The position numbers and the translations under genes were made by a program. DNA of 64,000 bases from Acidobacteriota bacterium (GTDB lineage: Bacteria; Acidobacteriota; UBA6911). The notes beneath the pieces are model-generated. The model searched no databases, was not told the origin of the DNA, and was given only the letters and a program-made list of their open reading frames with translations. Shown in pieces: positions 1,115-53,405 of the stretch. The DNA lies in the NCBI GenBank assembly GCA_016933615.1, contig JAFGAO010000140.1, positions 5,320 to 69,319 of the forward strand. The letters are read 5' to 3'. Within the stretch, counting starts at the first letter, position 1. Every line of letters starts with the position of its first letter.

Positions 1115-3246
1115 CGCGACATCGGCGCAGCCTGTTTTTCATCCTGTTTCTTTTCGCAATGTCGGAGGCATCCTGTTCCCGGTCCGGCGGCGAAGCCATC
1201 GACCGGGAAAAGCTCGTCGAGCGGCACTTCCCCCGGCTCAGCGAAGCGGACCCGCTCAGCCCGTTCACCGTGGGCAACGGGGAGTTCGCCTTCACGGCGG
1301 ACATCACGGGTCTTCAGACTTTTCCCGATTTTTACGAAAAAGGAATCCCGCTCGCCACTCAGTCAAACTGGGGCTGGCACACTATTCCCGGCCGTCAAAA
1401 CTACACCCTGGGGGACGCCACGGCGCTTTGGGATTCCTGCGGGCGGCAGGTTCCATACGCATCCCTGCAAAACACGGAGGCGGGACAGTGGCTGCGCGCC
1501 AATCCGCATAGGCTCAACCTGGGCCGGATCGGCTTTTTCCTTTCCGATCCCAACGGTAAAGAAATTACAATCCGCGACTTGAAGAACATAAACCAGACAG
1601 CCGATCTCTGGCAGGGCGTGATACGGAGCCATTTCGAGATCGGGGGCGAATCCGTTGATGTGGAAACGGCCTGTCATCCGGACATCGACCAAATCAGTGT
1701 GAGGATTCGATCCGCTCTTCTCAAGACCGGACGGATCGGGATTCGGTTCGACTTTCCCTATGGAAGTACGGCATGGGGCAAGAATGCGGCCGACTGGGAA
1801 AGACTCGAAGCGCACCATTCGGAAATCATATTCCAGGGCAAGCAGTCCGTTGTCATCGAACGCATTCTGGATGCAGACCGGTATCTTACGGTCATTCAGT
1901 GGTCCGACAACGACGCCCTTTCCCTGAATACCGAACACGCGTTTTCGCTTTCCAGCCCCGGCACGGACCGCTTCGATTTCAACGCGTACTTTTTAAAAAG
2001 TGTAGCGAATGAACCGGCCCCCTCTACGACGGAAACATTTGAGGCGTCCAAAAACCACTGGCGGAACTTCTGGGAATCCGGCGGCGCCGTAGACCTGTCT
2101 GAAAGTAAAGACAGCCGCGCACTGGAACTGGAAAGACGCATCGTCCTGTCGCAGTATCTGACGGCAGTCCAGTGCAGCGGTCACCTGCCGCCGGCGGAAA
2201 CCGGCCTGACCGCCAACAGCTGGTACGGCAAGTTCCACCTGGAAATGCACTGGTGGCACGGAGTTCATTTCGCTCTCTGGAGCCGCCCGGAGGTGCTGGA
2301 AAGAAGTTTTAGTTGGTACAGGTTCATCATGCCGAGAGCCAAAGAAACAGCCCAGAAACAGGGCTATGAAGGTGTGCGCTGGCCCAAGATGGTATCGGTC
2401 GAAGGCAGGGAGGGGCCTTCTTCAGTCGGTGTATTCCTTATCTGGCAGCAGCCGCACCCCATCTATTACGCGGAGTTGCTTTACCGCCGCAATAAAGACC
2501 ATGCCCTACTGGAAAAGTACCGGGAGATCGTTTTTGCAACCGCGGATTTCATGGCCTCCTACGCGCATTGGGACGAAGAATCAGGCCAATATAACCTTGG
2601 GCCTCCGCTTATTCCGGCGCAGGAAATCTACCGGCCCGCGGAAACGGTAAATCCAACCTTCGAGCTGGCGTACTGGAAGTACGGCCTGGAAACGGCTCAG
2701 CTGTGGCGGGAACGCCTCGGAATGCAGCGCGTAGAAAAATGGGACCATGTCCTCGAGCATCTTCCGCCACTGCCGCAGAAAAACGGGCTTTACCAGAACG
2801 CCGAGATGGCTCTCGACACTTTTGAGGACGCAAGTCAGCGCAGGGACCACCCTGCGCTGCTGGGCGCTTTGGGGATGCTTCCCGGCGATGCCGCGGATAT
2901 GGAAACCATGCGCAACACGCTCAAGCGGGTTCTCGAGTCCTGGGACTGGCAGAGCACCTGGGGCTGGGATTATCCCCTGATGGCCATGACGGCCGCAAGG
3001 GTCGGAGAACCCGAATCGGCCATCGATGCACTGATGATGGACGCGCCCAAAAACAGGTATCTGAAAAACGGTCACAACTACCAGGATGAACGATTGCCGG
3101 TTTACCTGCCCGGCAACGGGGGCCTGCTCACGGCCGTAGCCATGATGGCGGCCGGATGGGAAGGGGCCCCGGACGTCGAGGCTCCGGGATTCCCGAAAGA
3201 CGGAAACTGGATGGTGAAATACGAAGGGCTGAGCCCGCTGCCTTAA
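1111..3246 (+). CDS. Secreted glycoside hydrolase, GH65-like/(alpha/alpha)6-barrel, specificity unknown
   Basis: 711 aa with an N-terminal signal. Motifs VGNGEFAFTADITGLQTF, WYGKFHLEM, WGWDYP, YLPGNGGLL. ATGA overlap with the uxaE stop. Confidence 0.7.
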   Translation: MTRHRRSLFFILFLFAMSEASCSRSGGEAIDREKLVERHFPRLSEADPLSPFTVGNGEFAFTADITGLQTFPDFYEKGIPLATQSNWGWHTIPGRQNYTLGDATALWDSCGRQVPYASLQNTEAGQWLRANPHRLNLGRIGFFLSDPNGKEITIRDLKNINQTADLWQGVIRSHFEIGGESVDVETACHPDIDQISVRIRSALLKTGRIGIRFDFPYGSTAWGKNAADWERLEAHHSEIIFQGKQSVVIERILDADRYLTVIQWSDNDALSLNTEHAFSLSSPGTDRFDFNAYFLKSVANEPAPSTTETFEASKNHWRNFWESGGAVDLSESKDSRALELERRIVLSQYLTAVQCSGHLPPAETGLTANSWYGKFHLEMHWWHGVHFALWSRPEVLERSFSWYRFIMPRAKETAQKQGYEGVRWPKMVSVEGREGPSSVGVFLIWQQPHPIYYAELLYRRNKDHALLEKYREIVFATADFMASYAHWDEESGQYNLGPPLIPAQEIYRPAETVNPTFELAYWKYGLETAQLWRERLGMQRVEKWDHVLEHLPPLPQKNGLYQNAEMALDTFEDASQRRDHPALLGALGMLPGDAADMETMRNTLKRVLESWDWQSTWGWDYPLMAMTAARVGEPESAIDALMMDAPKNRYLKNGHNYQDERLPVYLPGNGGLLTAVAMMAAGWEGAPDVEAPGFPKDGNWMVKYEGLSPLP

Positions 3247-25563: not shown

Positions 25564-26613
25564 CTAGCGGACCGCGATCCTGCCTGGAGGCCCCGGAACA
25601 ACCCGGCCGATGACGGCCGCCTCTTCGATCCCCTGGTCGTGCATACGATGCAGCAACGCCCCGGCATTCTTTTCCGGGAGGGATATCAGCAATCCTCCGG
25701 AAGTTTGGGGATCAAAAAGTATATCCACCAGGTGCCGGGGGACGTCTTTTGAAATCTCAACCACATCCTTGAGATAATCCCTGTTGCGATACAACCCGCC
25801 CGGCACCATACCCATTTCGGACAACTCTGCGGCTTCGGGGAAAAAGGGGACGGCGGAAGAATCCAATTCTATACAGGCGTCCGTGCACCGGATCATTTCC
25901 GAGGCATGCCCGAGCAGCCCGAAACCGGTAATGTCGGTGCAGGCGCTTGGGTTTTCCAGGACCATCTGTTCCGAAGCTTTCCTGTTTAAGGCGCACATGG
26001 ATGCCACGATGCGGGACACGGCCTTTTCCCCGGCCATTTCCCCTTTAATGGCGGTGCTGATGATTCCGGTTCCCAGGGGCTTGGTCAGAATCAGGCGGTC
26101 CCCCGCTTTGGGCCTGTTGTTGAAAACCACAGCGGACGGATGAATTATTCCCGTAACGGACAGGCCGTATTTCAGTTCGGCATCCTCGACCGTGTGCCCC
26201 CCGAGCAGAATCACGCCGGCTTCATCCATTTTTTCCTGGCCTCCCCTGAAAATCTCGCGCAACACCGAAATTTCCAGAGTCTTGACGGGAAAGCACACGA
26301 TATTCAAAGCGGTGAGCGGTTTGCCCCCCTTGGCATAGATATCGCTCAAAGAGTTGGCCACGGCGATGCGGCCGAAGTCGAACGGGTCGTCGACAATCGG
26401 AGTGAAGAAATCGACGGTCTGAACAAGGGCCAGGTCCGCAGTAAGTTTATAGACGCCGGCATCCTCGGCGCTTTCCATCCCCGCGATCAGGTTTGGATCT
26501 GAAATAGACGGCATGCCGGCAAGCGCCTGGGCAAGATCTCCCGGACCTATTTTACAGGCTCACCCGGCCCCGCTGACCATCTGGCTAAGACGTGGCTTTT
26601 CCCTGCTCTGCAT
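25564..26613 (-). CDS. selD: Selenide,water dikinase (selenophosphate synthetase), selenoprotein with Sec18
   Basis: ATG 26613 reads MQSREKPRLSQMVSGAG-TGA(26560-26562)-ACKIGPGDL, in frame with the track ORF 25564..26514 (DAGVY, QTVDFF, LGGHT, TDITGFGLLGH, DPQTSGGLL). Confidence 0.95.
26525..26559 (-). promoter_or_regulatory. Bacterial SECIS-like hairpin directly 3' of the selD UGA
   Basis: GCCTG...CAGGC lower stem. Upper stem AGGTC/GATCT begins 11 nt after the UGA, with a G-rich loop CGGGA. Confidence 0.7.
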
Positions 26614-26632: not shown

Positions 26633-26854
26633 TTATTTTTGCGGTGGAGTCAGCGTCAGGACGTACTCGTCGCCCGATACGGTTTTTTCTTCTATCGAGT
26701 ATTTCCGGCTTTGGGCCAGACGGGACACATTTTCCTTGGACACTTCCGTTTCCACCAGCACGGTCAGCATATCCTTGGGGTTGTCCCGCATCGCCTTCTG
26801 GGTCTTCACTACGGGGATGGGGCACGAAAATCCCCGAACATCTATTTCAATCAT
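26633..26854 (-). CDS. TusA/SirA/YedF-like sulfur or selenium carrier
   Basis: IDVRGFSCPIPVVKT (CPxP motif), 73 aa from ATG 26854. Confidence 0.9.
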   Translation of the reverse strand: MIEIDVRGFSCPIPVVKTQKAMRDNPKDMLTVLVETEVSKENVSRLAQSRKYSIEEKTVSGDEYVLTLTPPQK

Positions 26855-27746
26855 CGTTTTCTCCTTCAACAACGCAAACGCCTGTCCATTGGCAAAGGTT
26901 TTCCTTAAAAACATCAGGGAAAAACTCAATGATCCGGCTTATCTTTGTGGCAGGCGTCGCCCGGGCCCTTTGACCCGCCGCCCGATTCGCGCGGGCGGCG
27001 AGCATTGCGGACGGGGCAGGGTCTATGCCTGCATCGACAAAAGCCGCAATCAAACCGCTTATGGTATCGCCGGTGCCGCCGATGGCTTCCATAGCCGGCA
27101 CATCGGGCTCGGCGACAGTTTCCAAAATATTCCCGTCTTTGACCACATAATCCACGGCTCCCTTCACCAGGAGCAGTTTCGCCGCGCTTCCGTTTTGATA
27201 GGCCGCTCGAATCAACTCCGGCGTCCTGTTTCCTTCAATATTGAAAAGATGCTTTTTTATGTAAGCCGGATGCGTGGCGGCAGGGTCGGCCAAAAACGCG
27301 AGCTCCGAAGCGTCCGGCGTAAAGACATCGAATGCCGTTGCCAGACCCGCCGCCTTGGCCGAATACATGGAAGCCGCATCGGCTATCATGACCGGCCTCT
27401 CGGCACAGCCATCCACCGCGGCGCACAATCGCCTTGTCAGGGGCATGTCGGGCAGCCAGTAATGAAGCGCCAGTACATCCGGCCTTATGCCGGCGATATT
27501 TTGTATCAGGTATTCGTAAATCTCCCGGCTGCCCGTCCCCAGGCCGATATCCCCCGCCAGAAGGGCGTGGGGCGGGTCCGTTTTCAGGTAGTCGGCAGCC
27601 GACAACGCGGCTCGGATCATGGCGCCGGTACCCTGGGTACAGGGAACCTGCCGGTCCCCGACGATAAAGGAGTCGCCGTCGGCCCGCACCCGGCCGAAAG
27701 TCAGAGGCATATCTTCGAGCGGAATCGTGCCGCAAATGATCAGCAT
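26847..27746 (-). CDS. Ribokinase-fold protein (YjeF-C/NAD(P)HX-dehydratase-like), function unknown
   Basis: IADA, FTPDASE, LLVKG and anion-hole motif IGGTGD. Overlaps both neighbours. Confidence 0.75.
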   Translation of the reverse strand: MLIICGTIPLEDMPLTFGRVRADGDSFIVGDRQVPCTQGTGAMIRAALSAADYLKTDPPHALLAGDIGLGTGSREIYEYLIQNIAGIRPDVLALHYWLPDMPLTRRLCAAVDGCAERPVMIADAASMYSAKAAGLATAFDVFTPDASELAFLADPAATHPAYIKKHLFNIEGNRTPELIRAAYQNGSAAKLLLVKGAVDYVVKDGNILETVAEPDVPAMEAIGGTGDTISGLIAAFVDAGIDPAPSAMLAARANRAAGQRARATPATKISRIIEFFPDVFKENLCQWTGVCVVEGENDD

Positions 27747-28282
27747 GCAGCTCCCCCTTTTTCATAAAGGGCCAGCCCTTCTTCCATGGCCCTTTCCAGC
27801 ATAAGGGCGCAAAGCGTGTACCCGAGGTCGTCCGGATGGGGCGCTTCCTGCAATTTCTTATCGATCATGGACGCGTGCATATAGGGAATATCCGGGCATC
27901 CGCCGCCCGAGACATTGACGATGATCCCGCTCCGCTTTTCAAACGTGAGCTTCATGTTCGCGGCCTTGACCATGACCCATTCGCCGAAGTCGGTCACTTT
28001 GACGATATTAAGTATTTCGGGCGAGTCGAAATTGAGCGGAACCATCTCTACAAATCCCGTAGTATTCCGCTGTAGCGTCCGTTCGATCCCGAGTTTCTCC
28101 ACCAGTTTGACCGCAACGGCCAGATCGCAGCCTTTGCGCAGCTCCGGCGGCGGCGCGACCAGTTGAACCCTGTATCCCGCCTTTTTAAGGACCCTCTCCG
28201 CCTTCATGGCATCGGAGACTTCCCTGAAAAGAATCAGGCCCTCACCTTCAAAATCCTTGTTCTTGCGCTTTATGAACTTCAT
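27740..28282 (-). CDS. DUF3343 domain protein with C-terminal GGGCPD domain
   Basis: AMKAERVLKK...PPPELRKGCDLAV in the N-half, VSGGGCPDIPY in the C-half. Confidence 0.75.
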   Translation of the reverse strand: MKFIKRKNKDFEGEGLILFREVSDAMKAERVLKKAGYRVQLVAPPPELRKGCDLAVAVKLVEKLGIERTLQRNTTGFVEMVPLNFDSPEILNIVKVTDFGEWVMVKAANMKLTFEKRSGIIVNVSGGGCPDIPYMHASMIDKKLQEAPHPDDLGYTLCALMLERAMEEGLALYEKGGAAC

Positions 28283-28316: not shown

Positions 28317-29384
28317 TCACGCCCGCTCCGTCAAGAAAGAGGCGACGACAATACAGACAATCAGACCGATGATCACCGCCACAGGCCCCCAGGCCCCTGT
28401 TCCGGCGGGACTGGAAGCGAGCAGGAAGTTGTGAGAAACGGCGGCGCCGGCCAGGTAACCCATGACGGTTATGGCCGCATCCGAATCCCCTTCACCGGAA
28501 AGAATGCAGTTGCGCAGGGGACAGCCCCCGATAAGGGTAGCCGCCAGCCCCACCAGGGACATTCCGAGGAAATTCCAGAGGTGCATCGTGTGGGAAACCG
28601 GCTGATCCTCAAATCCCCAGTGGTAGATCCCTTCCGCGCCGAAATTGCCGGCTGCGTAATTGGTCGCGATCGCGGCAACGAAGAATGCAATGACGCCGCT
28701 GATCAGATACGTGTCCTTAACCAGGAAAATATCGCGCCAGGCGCCGACGAAACACATGCGGGTCTTCTGCGCCATGAAACCGACAGCCAGCCCGACGATA
28801 AGAGCGAGGATAATCGGAGCGAATGCCGCCCCGGGGCCTTTCTCGCTTTGAAAAATGAACCCGGGTTTAAAAAAGGCCATAAGGAGCAGTCCGACCATGA
28901 TGGCCGGCATCATCCAGCCGACGACCGGTTTCATACGGGAAGCGCGTCCGAAATGGAATCCCCGCTTCAGGAAAAAAATCCCGACGAGAGCGCCCGCCAC
29001 CAGACCCAGAAGCGCAATAACGCCGTTGAGGTCTCCTCCGGCGATCCGGAGCATCATGCGTATCGGGCAGCCCAGAAATACCAGCGCCCCGATCATGACG
29101 AAGGCGCCCATGAGAAAGCGCAGGATCGGTGACGAGCCTCCCCTGGAGCGGAATTCGCCGAATATCAGAGAACTGATGAACGCGCCCAGGATGAACCCCA
29201 TGATCTCGGGACGCAGGTATTGCACGACAGCGGCGCGGTGAATCCCGACGGCGCCCGCAATATCACGGAGGAAACAGGCGACGCAGATGCCCATGTTCGC
29301 CGGGTTTCCCCAGTTGACCATCAGTGCGCCGAGAATTCCGAATACGATGCCCGCAATAATCATGAATATTTTTTTGGTTTTCAT
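28317..29384 (-). CDS. yedE: YedE family putative selenium transporter
   Basis: GNPANMGICVACFLRD, FLGCP, MCFVG, GGCPLR. First gene of the selD operon. Confidence 0.9.
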   Translation of the reverse strand: MKTKKIFMIIAGIVFGILGALMVNWGNPANMGICVACFLRDIAGAVGIHRAAVVQYLRPEIMGFILGAFISSLIFGEFRSRGGSSPILRFLMGAFVMIGALVFLGCPIRMMLRIAGGDLNGVIALLGLVAGALVGIFFLKRGFHFGRASRMKPVVGWMMPAIMVGLLLMAFFKPGFIFQSEKGPGAAFAPIILALIVGLAVGFMAQKTRMCFVGAWRDIFLVKDTYLISGVIAFFVAAIATNYAAGNFGAEGIYHWGFEDQPVSHTMHLWNFLGMSLVGLAATLIGGCPLRNCILSGEGDSDAAITVMGYLAGAAVSHNFLLASSPAGTGAWGPVAVIIGLIVCIVVASFLTERA

Positions 29385-29501
29385 TCTCCGCTCCTCCACA
29401 ACCCCCGGGAATCCTGTTTGGAAATGTTGAAGTCAGACCTCTTTCTCCGCTTGATAAATCCCATGCAATGGCGTAGAAAAAGACGGTACAGGGAAACCAT
29501 G

Positions 29502-29540
29502 ATAAATAATATTTATATTTTTGCAATATATATTTTATAT
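29502..29540. promoter_or_regulatory. Two LysR-type ATA-N9-TAT (T-N11-A) boxes
   Basis: ATAAATAATATTTAT (29502-29516) and ATATATATTTTATAT (29526-29540) between the divergent yedE and lysR genes. Confidence 0.6.
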
Positions 29541-29641
29541 ACCGTGCGCCCCGGCCCCGGCGGCACCGAGTTGCCTCGAGTAGCCTTCCGGGTTCTCTGT
29601 CCGGCAGTCGGCGTGAAACGGAGAACGGGAAACCGGGAATA

Positions 29642-30547
29642 ATGAATCTGGACTACCTTATAACTTTCAGAAACGTCGCGCGCTTGGGCAGTTTTTCAGA
29701 AGTAGCCCTGAAAATGGGGCTCAGCCAGCCCGCGGTTTCTTTCCAGATTCGGAAACTGGAGCAGAAGTTCGGAATCCGATTACTGGACAGGACCCAGAAG
29801 GCCATCAAACTCACAGTCGCGGGCAAACGCCTTCTTCAATTCATAGAATCGATCGAGGGGGACCTCGGACGGCTTGAAAACGATTTTGAAAAAATGAGGC
29901 AGGATATTTCCGGGGATCTTTGGATCATTGCCAGCACCATTCCCAGCGAATATATTCTGCCGGGCCTTTTGGCGGAATTCAAAGAGATGCACCCGACCGT
30001 GCGGGTGAAGGTGGACACGCTCGACTCCCTGGACGCCGTCAAAGGCGTGCTCGAAGGCAAGTACGAGGTGGGATTCTGCGGGATCAAGCCGGGCGAACAG
30101 GGTTTGGAATCCTTCAGGGTCTGCGGCGACGAAATCGTCCTGATCGTGTTTCCGGATCACCCCTTCGCCCAAAGAAACTGGATATCTTATTCCGAGCTGG
30201 AAGCCGAACACCTTATTTTCCGAAGCGAAACATCGGGTACGCAGCAGAGCCTGGAGAAACTCGCGGCACAATCAAAAATAAAATTCAAAAAACTGACCCC
30301 TCATCTCATCATGGGCAGCACGCAGGCCGTCGTCTCGGCCGTCGAGGCGGGGGCCGGTGTCGCGTTCATATCAAAATCGGCGATTAAAAAGAGCCTGGAA
30401 CTCGGCCTCGTCCGGCAGGTGGCGATAAAGGGATTCAGCCTGAAACGGGACTTCTACTGCTTCTATCCCAGGGAACGGATCGTGTCCCGCCTGATCAAAG
30501 AATTCATAGCCTTTATTCGAAAGGAAACCTCCTCCGGCGGACTCTGA
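29642..30547 (+). CDS. LysR family regulator (selenium-metabolism-associated/CysL-like)
   Basis: HTH GSFSEVALKMGLSQPAVSFQIRKLE plus substrate-binding domain. Divergent from yedE. Confidence 0.92.
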   Translation: MNLDYLITFRNVARLGSFSEVALKMGLSQPAVSFQIRKLEQKFGIRLLDRTQKAIKLTVAGKRLLQFIESIEGDLGRLENDFEKMRQDISGDLWIIASTIPSEYILPGLLAEFKEMHPTVRVKVDTLDSLDAVKGVLEGKYEVGFCGIKPGEQGLESFRVCGDEIVLIVFPDHPFAQRNWISYSELEAEHLIFRSETSGTQQSLEKLAAQSKIKFKKLTPHLIMGSTQAVVSAVEAGAGVAFISKSAIKKSLELGLVRQVAIKGFSLKRDFYCFYPRERIVSRLIKEFIAFIRKETSSGGL

Positions 30548-30664
30548 CCTTCCCGCCCGCCCACGACCGCGCTTCCAATACTGCAATTTTTCACCGCTAT
30601 CCCTGCATCCTGTTTCTCTTCATGTATTTCCGGAGGATTCTCACATCCTGCGCCCCTGCTATCT

Positions 30665-30679
30665 ATTAATTATATTTAT
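30665..30679. promoter_or_regulatory. LysR-type box upstream of the porin
   Basis: ATTAATTATATTTAT is 13/15 identical to the box at 29502. Confidence 0.5.
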
Positions 30680-30789
30680 TATACTCATAATAATTATCTT
30701 GACATAAATTTAAAATAAAACTAAAAACAACCTCCGGATCATTCAAAATTTCTTCAATTCGGGACAAAGAACCTGGCAGTTCCGGTTCG

Positions 30790-32031
30790 ATGAAAACGCA
30801 ATTTCTAAAGAAAGGAATCCAGATGATGCATCTATTCATATCGAATGTTCAAACCGGGCGCCGCCGAATGTCCGACGTACCGAAAAAGTCAAACCCCAGA
30901 ACGTTGCGGCGGCCGGTCCAAACCGCCGTATGCGTTTCCATGATCCTTTTCCATCTGTCGTTTTCCTCCCCGGCGCGCGCGGGAGTGAAGATCAATCTGG
31001 ACGACAACCGATGGATCGAGCTGGGCATGCGGATGCAGGCATGGTACCAGGCGGTCGACGCCGGGGACAGCGCCGCGATTCACGACTTCATGATACGCAG
31101 GCCGTATTTTTATGTGCAGGGCCAGGCGCACCCCGATGTCACGTTTTTCGCCCACATCGCCGGGGACCGGATCGGACAGGACGGCCTCGACAGCCCGGGA
31201 GTCGGGCTGGGCTCGGGGCTGGCCATCCGCGACGGATGGATCGCCTATTCTCCCGCGGACGAATTCAAGGTCCAGGCGGGCCGCATGTATGTTCCCTTCA
31301 CCCGCGCCTTCGGCACGGAAAGCACCTTCGCCCTCCTGACGCTGGATCTGCCCTACGAGCAGGGCGGCGTGCGCGGGGCGCCCTTCTTCCCGTCCAAAGT
31401 GGGCCGGGACGACGGCGTCGTCGCCTGGGGCAATCTCGCAAAGGGTCTCGTGCAGTACCGGTTCGGTCTTTTTGAAGGCCAGGGAGCCGCGCAGAATCCG
31501 GACCGGAACCTGCGCACATCCGGAAGGGTCTCCCTGAGCCTTCTCGACCCCGAGACTTCCTGGTTCAACAGCGGCAACTACCTGGGCGAAAAAAAGGTGC
31601 TGTCGTTCGGATTCGGATTCGACAGGCAGGCATGCCTGCAATGGGGGGAACGCCCCGCGGACGACTACTTCGGATGGACGGCCGACCTTTTCCTGGATCA
31701 TCCGGCCGGCGCCGGGACAGTAGTTGTCGAAGGCGCCTACATCGACATCCAGAACGCCCAGAACCTGGCGGACGCCAAAAATTATTACGGCCAGGCGGGC
31801 TACCTCTTCCCAAAGATTGCGGACAAAGTGGAGCTCCAGCCCTATGCCAGGTTTGAAAAAACAAACAGGGAGCAAATGGCGGATACCGTTTATGCGAGCG
31901 GCGGCATGAACGTGTTTTTCAGGAAACACAGCCTCAAGCTGACTTTCGACTTCACCAAGGTTTCCCAGGGAGCCGAAACATCCGAGGAGGATAAATCCCT
32001 CTTTACGGTTCAATTCCAGGCCGCCCTGTAG
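30790..32031 (+). CDS. Outer-membrane beta-barrel porin, phosphate-selective O/P-like (true start probably 30823 or 30868)
   Basis: Signal ends SPARA-G. Amphipathic strands, FKVQAGRMYVPFTR, terminal strand FTVQFQAAL. Confidence 0.75.
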   Translation: MKTQFLKKGIQMMHLFISNVQTGRRRMSDVPKKSNPRTLRRPVQTAVCVSMILFHLSFSSPARAGVKINLDDNRWIELGMRMQAWYQAVDAGDSAAIHDFMIRRPYFYVQGQAHPDVTFFAHIAGDRIGQDGLDSPGVGLGSGLAIRDGWIAYSPADEFKVQAGRMYVPFTRAFGTESTFALLTLDLPYEQGGVRGAPFFPSKVGRDDGVVAWGNLAKGLVQYRFGLFEGQGAAQNPDRNLRTSGRVSLSLLDPETSWFNSGNYLGEKKVLSFGFGFDRQACLQWGERPADDYFGWTADLFLDHPAGAGTVVVEGAYIDIQNAQNLADAKNYYGQAGYLFPKIADKVELQPYARFEKTNREQMADTVYASGGMNVFFRKHSLKLTFDFTKVSQGAETSEEDKSLFTVQFQAAL

Positions 32032-51823: not shown

Positions 51824-52092
51824 GGACGAACTCCCGTAATTTTTTACCGCCGCCGGCGTCTATTTTATTCCTTTGAACCGCTGTTCAAAAGCGCGATCAA
51901 AAATCCGGAGACGGCGCCCCGGGTCCACAGGGCGCTCAACGAAAAAATCAACGAATACCTCACGGCCCCCTCGGAAACGCTGTTCGCAATCGACACGGCG
52001 GGGCTTCGTGGATGAAGGGACACCCTCCCTTTTCAGGCAAACGGGAAGGGGAGCCTCCCTGTCATTACATCCTTATATTTTAATAATCAAGC

Positions 52093-52121
52093 TTGATTTT
52101 TAAAATATAATAGCCTATGAT
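52093..52121 (+). promoter_or_regulatory. Sigma70-type promoter placing the TSS at or near the ATG (leaderless)
   Basis: TTGATT-17nt-TATGAT-6nt-ATG(52128). No Shine-Dalgarno. Confidence 0.55.
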
Positions 52122-52127
52122 CCCGCT

Positions 52128-53405
52128 ATGTTTTCACGCCGGATTGAAAAGAAATTATTGAAAACATTGGAAGATTTTCGCTGCGTAGCCCTGACGGGCG
52201 CCCGTCAGGTCGGGAAAAGCTATCTTCTCAGCCGAATCTGCCGGGATCAGGAGGGCATATACCGGACCCTCGATGACCCAAGGGTGCTTGAGGAGGCCAA
52301 TTCGGACCCGGTGGGTTGGCTGCGGCACAATCGCAGGCGAGGCAAACTTCTGGTTATCGACGAAGCGGCCAAATCTCCCCGGATTTTTTCGGCCGTCAAA
52401 GTGATTGTCGATGAGGAAGATCCCGTACCGACAAAGATCCTGCTTTCCAGCAGCGGCAACTATCTCCTGATGAGGCGAATAAAAGAATCCCTCGCCGGAA
52501 GGATTGGCCTGGTCTATCTCTACCCTCTCTCGTGGAGTGAAATCGGCGACGGTGTTCCCTCCCGTATTTCAAAACTCGCCGAACCGGATTCCATCCAGAC
52601 CGGTTCGGTTCCCGGCATGAGCGCGATTGAAATCGACAGAAGCCGTGAAAATATACTCACCTTCGGAGGATTTCCGGAAATTCAGGAGAAGTCGGATGCC
52701 GGATTCTTAAGGGAGTGGTCGAACCAATACTTCAATACCTACATCCTGCCGATGGCCGTTGAATTCTTCAGTGTAAGCAAGCAACACGCCTTTCAGAAGG
52801 TTTTTTACCAGATGTGTCTTCGAACATCCAATCTGCTCAATTACAGCGATGTAGCCGGACCAAGCGGCATCAGTTCGGTGACGGTAAAAAATTACATCGA
52901 ATACTTTACCGCAATGATGATCTGCTTCGAACTGCCCCAGTTCTACCTGAATCCGATCAAAAGACTCGTCAAGTCCCCGAAGATACACATCATTGATCCA
53001 ATCCTTGTTAACACCGGTTTCGGCAATGTCGGCAGCCTGACGCTGCAAAAAAACACCGGGGCGATAGGACAGCTCTACGAGTCATGGATTGTGTCGGAAT
53101 TGATAAAATGCGCCCATTACGAATCCATTTTCCCCGACTTCTTCACCTGGCGTACCCAGGACGGGGCCGAAGTGGACCTGGTTTTGAGACTTCAGGGACA
53201 TTACGTGCCGATCGAAATAAAATACAAAAAAAGGCTGAGCAAAAGGGATTTATCGGGATTACGGTCCTGGTTTGAAGTACACGATTCCGAGACTCCGGCC
53301 GCCTATATCGTCTACCCGGGAAACAAATTTTATCGGCTCTCCGGGAAGATCTGGGCCTTGCCGGATTTTCTTCTACTGGGAGCGTTCGACAGCCGGCGCA
53401 CCTGA
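52128..53405 (+). CDS. AAA_14 ATPase with DUF4143 domain (second copy)
   Basis: GARQVGKS, VIDEA, SSSG, KRLVKSPK, RTQDGAEVD...IEIK. Confidence 0.9.
   Translation: MFSRRIEKKLLKTLEDFRCVALTGARQVGKSYLLSRICRDQEGIYRTLDDPRVLEEANSDPVGWLRHNRRRGKLLVIDEAAKSPRIFSAVKVIVDEEDPVPTKILLSSSGNYLLMRRIKESLAGRIGLVYLYPLSWSEIGDGVPSRISKLAEPDSIQTGSVPGMSAIEIDRSRENILTFGGFPEIQEKSDAGFLREWSNQYFNTYILPMAVEFFSVSKQHAFQKVFYQMCLRTSNLLNYSDVAGPSGISSVTVKNYIEYFTAMMICFELPQFYLNPIKRLVKSPKIHIIDPILVNTGFGNVGSLTLQKNTGAIGQLYESWIVSELIKCAHYESIFPDFFTWRTQDGAEVDLVLRLQGHYVPIEIKYKKRLSKRDLSGLRSWFEVHDSETPAAYIVYPGNKFYRLSGKIWALPDFLLLGAFDSRRT

Follow-up and report, generated by a model that had tools for sequence, protein, structure and literature searches.

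The window analyzed here, a stretch of 64,000 nucleotides from an Acidobacteriota bacterium (GTDB lineage UBA6911; GenBank assembly GCA_016933615.1, contig JAFGAO010000140.1, positions 5,320 to 69,319 of the forward strand), contains a cluster of selenium genes next to which lie a lysR gene and a gene for an outer-membrane porin. The minus-strand operon has the order yedE, DUF3343 carrier, kinase-fold protein, tusA, and a selD gene that itself contains a selenocysteine (Sec) codon. A 257-bp control region separates yedE from the divergent lysR, and the porin gene, which has its own predicted sigma-70 promoter, begins 278 bp after the lysR stop codon (Table 1). A preliminary description of positions 29,502 to 32,031 had proposed that the porin shares the regulon of the selenium LysR and serves as the entry step for selenium. 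The sequence features behind this proposal were confirmed, and each of its refuting conditions that could be examined in silico spoke for it. From the comparisons reported below, this segment appears, on balance, to be the control and entry module of the selenium-assimilation cluster. That the porin acts in selenium uptake and that a 15-bp box in its promoter is a LysR operator are, taken together, rather probable.

Table 1. Features of the selenium cluster in the window, and leaders upstream of porin-yedE genes at related loci
Feature	Position	Strand	Evidence and remarks
Box 1, ATAAATAATATTTAT, perfect 6-3-6 dyad ATAAAT-AAT-ATTTAT, T-N11-A	29502-29516		Best candidate LysR operator
Box 2, ATATATATTTTATAT	29526-29540		Weak or degenerate second site; abuts predicted yedE -35 hexamer
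Porin-promoter box, ATTAATTATATTTAT	30665-30679		13/15 match to box 1; centre about -62 from predicted transcription start
Second conserved AT block, T[CT]ATAA	30685-30690		Possible activation-site half; just upstream of porin -35 hexamer
Predicted porin promoter, TTGACA-17-TAAAAA	30699-30727	+	TTGACA 30699-30704, TAAAAA 30722-30727, predicted start near 30734; -35 invariant in four genomes, -10 TAAAAA or AATAAT
Predicted lysR promoter, TTGATA-17-TAGAAA	29451-29479	+	Inside yedE 5' leader; hexamers and 17-nt spacing conserved
Predicted yedE promoter, TTGCAA-16-TATCAT	29499-29526	-	Promoter scan; L085 equivalent TTGCAC-17-TATAAT
selD, selenophosphate synthetase, itself a selenoprotein	25564-26613	-	TIGR00476, 346.9 bits; in-frame TGA 26560-26562
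tusA-like small sulfur/selenium carrier, CPxP motif	26633-26854	-	Translation MIEIDVRGFSCPIPVV...
Carbohydrate-kinase-fold protein (YjeF C-terminal-like)	26847-27746	-	Weak TIGR00196 match
DUF3343 selenium/sulfur-carrier protein	27740-28282	-	PF11823, 60.5 bits
yedE, putative inner-membrane selenium transporter	28317-29384	-	TIGR04112 (seleno_YedE), 471.5 bits, cut-off 200
lysR, selenium-metabolism-associated subfamily (LysR_Se)	29642-30547	+	NF040786, 247.4 bits, cut-off 250
ExtI-like porin, OprP/OprO fold, 401 amino acids, signal peptide ending ...SSPARA	30826-32031	+	PF07396, NF040900, AlphaFold2
Leader upstream of porin-yedE	L006:9685-9819 (approximate)		Sequence conservation
Leader upstream of porin-yedE	L007:9646-9780 (approximate)		Sequence conservation
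Leader upstream of porin-yedE	L008:9605-9739 (approximate)		Sequence conservation
Leader upstream of porin-yedE	L009:9688-9825 (approximate)		Sequence conservation
Leader upstream of porin-yedE	L010:668-805 (approximate)		Sequence conservation
Leader upstream of porin-yedE	L090	reverse	Sequence conservation
Leader upstream of porin-yedE	L093:1762-1896 (approximate)		Sequence conservation
Leader upstream of porin-yedE	L099:1967-2104 (approximate)		Sequence conservation

The two ATA-N9-TAT boxes that had been described in the yedE/lysR intergenic region are present, with starts 24 bp apart. A third, overlapping ATA-N9-TAT match was found at 29515-29529, and the rule is thus a loose one in this DNA. 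Box 1 overlaps the -10 hexamer and the spacer of the predicted yedE promoter, lies downstream of the predicted lysR start, and is kept in the related loci L003 to L005, while the best dyad of Dehalococcoidales-type loci sits at the position of box 2. Across 29451-29526, the promoters predicted for lysR and yedE point toward each other, with starts approximately 5 nt apart (near 29486 and 29492), so each promoter would lie inside the leader of the other. The lysR promoter hexamers (TTGAT[GA]-17-TA.AA.) are kept in L003 to L005 as well as in the Dehalococcoidales-type loci L084, L085, L087, and L098. The location of box 1 on the yedE core promoter suggests repression or remodeling, combined with autoregulation of lysR.

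At the porin promoter, the previously noted 13/15 match to box 1 was found; however, the box reads ATT-N9-TAT and therefore falls outside the ATA-N9-TAT rule that had been given for the other two. Classical LysR-type activators, such as CysB of the sulfur-starvation regulon, bind a recognition site near -65 and an activation site near -35. The porin promoter resembles this arrangement, with a T-N11-A dyad near -62 of the predicted transcription start and a second AT block approximately 20 bp downstream that adjoins the -35 hexamer. The divergence of the regulator gene from its target operon and the apparent autoregulation are further features shared with classical LysR systems. At yedE, in contrast, the best dyad lies over the -10 and spacer in a more repression-like position, and the divergent promoters face and overlap each other.

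The most serious alternative is that the porin does serve selenium uptake but that the box is AT-rich UP-element or curved DNA of a constitutive or otherwise regulated strong promoter, its likeness to box 1 stemming from AT-only composition and from the shared ancestry of four close genomes. Identity alone gives this alternative some room: when the 76-nt AT-rich promoter was shuffled with its composition preserved, 446 to 584 of 5,000 shuffles (9 to 12%) reached 13/15 or better against one of the boxes on one strand or the other, and 13/15 identity by itself is not significant. The possibility of a chance match in AT-rich DNA, which the preliminary description had itself raised, therefore held for the identity count but fared less well against an independent matrix. 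This was derived from six lysR-adjacent dyads and included no porin promoter and nothing from the window's genome. Three of the dyads are box 1 of L003 to L005; the others lie beside lysR in L098 (ATAAATATTATTTAT, the reverse complement of box 1; LysR 63% identical), L012 (ATAAAAAAATTTTAT; LysR 54% identical), and L085 (ATAAATATAACTTAT; LysR 61% identical). When 3.62 million positions of the window's genome were scanned, box 1 ranked first and the porin box second, and the score of the porin box was attained by only 26 to 34 of 5,000 local shuffles (0.5 to 0.7%; P of approximately 0.005 to 0.007).

Conservation in related genomes likewise argues against an UP-element. Loci L003, L004, and L005 share the layout of the window in that yedE and lysR diverge and the porin comes after lysR, and an alignment of the lysR-porin spacer from the four genomes revealed the blocks TAT.AAT....TTTAT, T[CT]ATAA, and an invariant CTTGACA separated by variable linkers. 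Five of the six columns of the T[CT]ATAA block were invariant, with variation in the linkers on both sides of it. The preliminary description had made its proposal depend on conservation of the box in orthologous promoters, and this was observed in four of four, at a fixed offset of 18 to 19 nt between the end of the box and the -35 hexamer. The box is retained even in L005 (LysR 66% identical), where the surrounding spacer can no longer be aligned. A degenerate pattern fitted to eight sites matched the L005 genome at the two lysR-flanking positions only; as those two positions had helped to define the pattern, the informative part of this result is that no other match occurs in the genome. 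The same pattern found 3 to 17 further sites in the other three genomes. The density of ATA-N9-TAT was 13 times higher in the lysR flanks than in the rest of the loci, a comparison of intergenic with mostly coding DNA that carries little weight.

A T-N11-A dyad is likewise present at the porin promoter in lineages unrelated to that of the window, and this speaks against a nonspecific AT-rich element. In the Thermodesulfobacteriota-type loci L011 and L013 the gene order is LysR_Se-porin-yedE, and a dyad of the form ATAG[GA]-N5-TCTAT lies directly against the porin's TTGAC -35 hexamer (L011:1930-1990 and L013:9550-9610); because of this gene order, the porin promoter is the only one available for yedE. 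A second, half-conserved copy of the dyad was observed approximately 32 nt upstream in these two loci, and their dyad differs from the ATAAA-N5-TTTAT of the window by one base per half-site. The yedE promoters of Syntrophales (L089:3000-3070 and L012:4180-4250) carry a different conserved element composed of GTTATAA repeats (GTTATAA ... TTATAACTTTTATGAATTTGA) in place of the ATAAAT dyad, indicating that the operator is lineage specific.

A number of points weigh against an operator role for the porin box. The motif consists of A and T only and lies within an AT-only stretch. Box 2 scores poorly with the matrix (rank 30 to 50 genome-wide), close relatives supplied three of the six sites behind the matrix, and other high matrix matches in the genome are not beside selenium genes. 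The geometry is unequal, the box covering the -10 and spacer at yedE and lying near -62 at the porin, and the -35 hexamer of the porin is a perfect TTGACA, so that an activator may not be needed. The LysR, at 247.4 bits, falls just below the curated cut-off of 250 for NF040786. An UP-element is also favored by the occurrence of the lysR-porin layout in only four genomes, three of them close relatives. The L003 15-mer recurs as a third exact copy in a stretch with terminator hairpins that separates convergent genes, where it has no obvious function and is probably due to chance. Further regulon targets were not found with the matrix, the next-best matches lying within coding sequence or near unrelated genes (flagellin, histidine biosynthesis, and ABC transporter, among others). 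On the other side, only 17 stretches of the genome reach 36 or more A or T in 40 bases, and this lysR is flanked by two of them. Taking both sides together, the UP-element explanation is unlikely, though it retains a real share of the probability, and the box at 30665-30679 is probably a genuine LysR operator controlling the porin. Another of the 17 AT-rich islands was observed at window positions 52073-52112, just upstream of the open reading frame at 52128-53405.

The regulator fits the selenium LysR family best, with a score just under the curated cut-off. NF040786 is the top family for the window protein, approximately 90 bits ahead of any other, and the protein is approximately 60% identical to proteins given this family name by NCBI; homologues at this level of identity exceed the cut-off (e.g., 266 bits in L084). 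Its gene is divergent from the yedE to selD operon, and the same layout is seen in L003 to L005 and L084. The same family occurs beside the porin or yedE at six other loci (L011, L013, L080, L028, L089, and L012), where all LysR proteins pass NF040786 with 257 to 303 bits.

The porin had been assigned a start at 30790, but the ATG at 30826 is more probable, as it has an AAAGGA ribosome-binding site and gives a length of 401 amino acids that agrees with the homologues. The match to Porin_O_P (PF07396) scored 28.8 bits, above the gathering threshold of 20.9, with only residues 77-173 aligned; this family is also listed for most of the homologues in precomputed Pfam annotation. The comparison with ExtI, OprO, and OprP that had been called for agreed with an O/P-type porin. 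The sole NCBIfam match was to NF040900 (porin_ExtI), at 135.1 bits against a cut-off of 150, with residues 49-403 aligned to model positions 11-393 of 403, and a homologue of 53% identity (P0056) is named ExtI by NCBI. The AlphaFold2 model (predicted local distance difference test score, 73.6; predicted template modeling [TM] score, 0.72) had as its top three PDB matches 2o4v (OprP) and 4rjx and 4rjw (OprO), with TM scores of 0.62 to 0.64 and E values of approximately 1e-12. Eleven arginines are invariant among 16 porin homologues that are 48 to 85% identical to the window porin, as would be expected for an anion-selective channel.

The window porin thus shares with Pseudomonas aeruginosa OprP and OprO the fold, the Pfam family, and many conserved arginines, but the identity is only 13 to 15%, the Pfam match is confined to the segment given above, and its neighbors are selenium genes rather than pst or pho genes. 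OprP is coregulated with the Pst importer under PhoB, which provides an analogy for a nutrient-specific porin paired with an inner-membrane importer. No pst or pho genes are adjacent to the window porin, and inspection by eye of 30600-30826 gave no evident Pho-box-like sequence. The genome encodes another O/P porin (C236, 27% identity); its neighbors were uninformative, and no pst genes were found there.

In Geobacter sulfurreducens, the porin-like ExtI is encoded within the extHIJKLMNOPQS cluster, is required for selenite and tellurite reduction, has been suggested to be an uptake channel, and shows no induction by phosphate limitation (PMC5877670). A follow-up on selenite uptake (Jahan et al. 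2019, BBRC) is cited in PMC13510729. The window porin resembles ExtI in being an O/P-type beta-barrel that matches NF040900 over its full length, and the proposed role is the same, namely, passage of selenite or another chalcogen oxyanion through the outer membrane. It differs in its context, as it is tied to the assimilatory yedE-selD genes and LysR_Se, whereas the published ExtI is linked to selenite and tellurite reduction, in a cluster under Fur, and not to selenoprotein synthesis. The neighbors of the window porin are lysR, yedE, and a B12/radical-SAM protein; as the rhodanese ExtH and the multihaem cytochromes are absent beside it, it appears to belong to a paralogous YedE-linked branch rather than to be an ExtI orthologue, and it is treated here as a YedE-linked sister branch of ExtI.

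Comparative genomics provides the strongest evidence for a selenium role of the porin. The synteny of the porin with yedE and selD, which the preliminary description had suggested searching for, proved to be widespread. Across 80 homologous porin loci from GTDB genomes, 35 have at least one of yedE, a DUF3343 carrier, the kinase, and selD no more than 10 kb away, and the linked loci represent at least three phyla and at least three gene orders. The proportion rises to 55% (22/40) for loci with at least 3 kb of flank on both sides. In 19 loci, yedE lies no more than 400 nt downstream of the porin on the same strand. The linkage recurs in Acidobacteriota, Thermodesulfobacteriota, and Planctomycetota. 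The order porin-yedE-carrier-kinase was found in many Thermodesulfobacteriota, in other Acidobacteriota, and in one Phycisphaerales genome; the order yedE-...-yedF-porin, divergent from LysR, in the Syntrophales locus L089; and the order lysR-porin in the clade of the window. On a maximum-likelihood tree, the selenium-linked label changed at least nine times, and its clustering exceeded that of all 500 label shuffles. Overall, it is highly likely that the porin forms the outer-membrane step of selenium uptake.

It is improbable, in comparison, that the protein is a channel for anions or chalcogens in general (phosphate, sulfur oxyanions, or polysulfide) and that its position next to lysR and yedE has no selenium-specific meaning. 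Such a channel would fit the match to a phosphate-porin family in Pfam and the OprP/OprO fold, and some members of the family do occur in other contexts. In a Bacteroidota locus (L077:8089-11795), a porin without yedE adjoins an SQR-like flavoprotein, a Tll0287-like protein, and DsrE. In an alphaproteobacterial locus (L050:7788-13472), a porin without yedE has as neighbors a DedA-rhodanese fusion, a class-V aminotransferase of the cysteine desulfurase or Sec-lyase type, and a TehB-like methyltransferase, and the porin of L020 has nothing selenium-related nearby. Strict co-occurrence of porin and YedE also fails, as the acidobacterial genomes G011 and G166 have the porin without seleno-YedE. 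These contexts count against a dedicated selenium porin, and the channel may not be selenium specific; the ExtI score just below the curated cut-off (135.1 versus 150 bits) is a further point against the selenium reading. Nevertheless, a general channel would not readily account for a selenium gene within 10 kb at 55% of adequately flanked loci, with at least nine independent tree events, or for the operon-like spacing to yedE in 19 loci. Since genomes typically have one copy of yedE, linkage within 10 kb would be expected by chance in less than 1% of cases for a genome size of approximately 4 Mb, a figure that is an estimate and was not computed. The lack of induction of ExtI by phosphate limitation in Geobacter (PMC5877670) and of an evident Pho-box-like sequence points in the same direction. 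The most fitting description of the family is that of chalcogen-anion porins, within which selenium assimilation forms a large branch.

A further alternative, that porin transcripts arise chiefly through read-through from lysR and track autoregulation of the regulator, is compatible with the shared strand and with the failure to find a terminator-like hairpin in 30548-30700 but is very improbable, given that the 278-bp gap contains a near-consensus promoter and a leader of approximately 90 nt, both conserved, and that lysR genes are usually expressed at low levels while porins are abundant.

For the reading in which the porin serves selenium uptake under LysR control, the following model is proposed. 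The anion-type porin would pass selenium species through the outer membrane, YedE would then move them over the inner membrane, and the carriers would hand them over to SelD. The transported species may be selenite or, in sulfidic habitats, HSe- or seleno-sulfide. A LysR tetramer would recognize the ATAAAT-N3-ATTTAT dyad (T-N11-A) at two places. The first is box 1, together with the weaker box 2, over the yedE core promoter and downstream of the point where lysR transcription is predicted to begin; the second is the near-copy at about -62 of the porin promoter, in an activator-type position with the second AT block adjoining the -35 hexamer. The channel, transporter, carriers, and SelD would thereby covary with selenium status and may constitute a complete envelope-to-selenophosphate pathway under one LysR. 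A reduced selenium metabolite could switch the system off at high selenium, although the direction of control is a guess.

The remaining genes of the operon are consistent with selenium assimilation. The true start of selD is the ATG at 26613 rather than the 26514 of the program-made list of open reading frames, and translation with TGA as U from this start reads MQSREKPRLSQMVSGAG-U-ACK and continues IGPGDL, giving the Sec motif GAG-U-ACK. The gene at the position equivalent to tusA in the homologous L084 operon has a Pfam TusA match, and the kinase-fold homologues in L084 and L089 match Pfam Carb_kinase; a gene for this kinase-fold protein accompanies yedE in most selenium-linked loci. YedE starts at 29384 with the N terminus MKTKKIF.

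The window segment 25564-30547 was compared with the Dehalococcoidales-type locus L084:1648-6903, which has the same divergent layout without a porin. The window YedE, SelD, carrier, kinase, and LysR are 78, 69, 69, 63, and 61% identical, respectively, to their L084 counterparts, whereas the window YedE is 52 to 54% identical to that of other Acidobacteriota. A search of 300 Acidobacteriota found no LysR orthologue at an E value of 1e-50 or lower except the window's own, the nearest relatives being Dehalococcoidales-type. On the tree, however, the porin falls inside a clade of Acidobacteriota. This suggests that a horizontally transferred, porin-less selenium operon was joined to a native acidobacterial porin, the promoter of which now seems to bear the dyad of the incoming regulator.

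In the sister clade L006 to L010, in two metagenome contigs of distinct sequence, L090 and L093, and in a genome of the same genus (G300, locus L099), porin-yedE genes were observed without an adjacent LysR and with a conserved leader instead. The leader has a promoter, CTTGACA-17-CATTATAG, a ribosome-binding site, AAGGAG, and a frame of 44 to 45 codons with an ATG or GTG start and an aligned TAA or TGA stop. Codons 8 and 10 are TGA, in the pattern U-x-U-C-E-L, and a hairpin resembling a selenocysteine insertion sequence, GGCTCCCCGTGCGGGAAGCC, follows 15 nt after the second TGA. This hairpin is nearly invariant, with 3 of 21 sites varying compared with 20 of 42 in the preceding 14 codons. The 3' part of the frame pairs with a segment just past the stop at -22 to -26.5 kcal/mol, matched by 0 to 1 of 300 shuffles, and the pairing shows a compensatory change from U-A to C-G. 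The segment past the stop is also complementary to the porin ribosome-binding site, GCGAAAGGGA, at -11.5 to -19.8 kcal/mol, more weakly in L010. Variable sites of the leader numbered 6, 11, and 11 at codon positions 1, 2, and 3, and other frames were also nearly stop-free. No Rfam family was identified for the control regions or for this leader, either at gathering thresholds or with E values up to 1. In L099 (G300:C165), the same-genus porin matched at 2249-3097 as two pieces of 36 and 53% identity, reflecting a diverged middle or a frameshift.

The leader is a candidate Sec-sensing translational switch, set by ribosome read-through of the two UGA codons. It is tentatively conceivable, with the doubts slightly outweighing the support, that the porin is a regulated gate of selenium assimilation which one acidobacterial genus wires to selenium status by either of two unrelated devices. 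The first would be the LysR_Se operator of the window and L003 to L005, lying in a yedE-selD-lysR cluster apparently acquired from Dehalococcoidales. The second would be the translated leader of G300, L006 to L010, L090, and L093, in which a three-strand switch would hide or expose the porin ribosome-binding site, and the ribosome itself would gauge whether Sec insertion is possible.

LysR_Se (HrsM), YedE, and DUF3343 have been proposed as selenium genes, with LysR_Se located beside yedE and selD (Lin et al. 2015, PMC5322559); the terms "porin," "outer membrane," and "binding site" do not appear in that paper. The window LysR is best placed in the same family (247 bits, compared with 257 to 303 at neighboring-type loci) and has the same gene neighbors. 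It differs from the published LysR_Se in that a dyad and a porin target are proposed here, no description of a bacterial operator or an outer-membrane target having been found. Full-text literature searches also yielded no paper in which YedE was connected with a porin for the uptake of selenium.

Published models of bacterial selenium assimilation comprise YedE, YedF, DUF3343, SelD, and LysR_Se (PMC5322559) and include no outer-membrane step, for which the ExtI-like porin is a concrete candidate. The 15-bp dyad is a directly testable operator candidate, none having been described for a bacterial selenium LysR. Together, the porin and the dyad open the envelope-to-selenophosphate route, and its control, to experiment, and ExtI would become one branch of a wider chalcogen-porin family.

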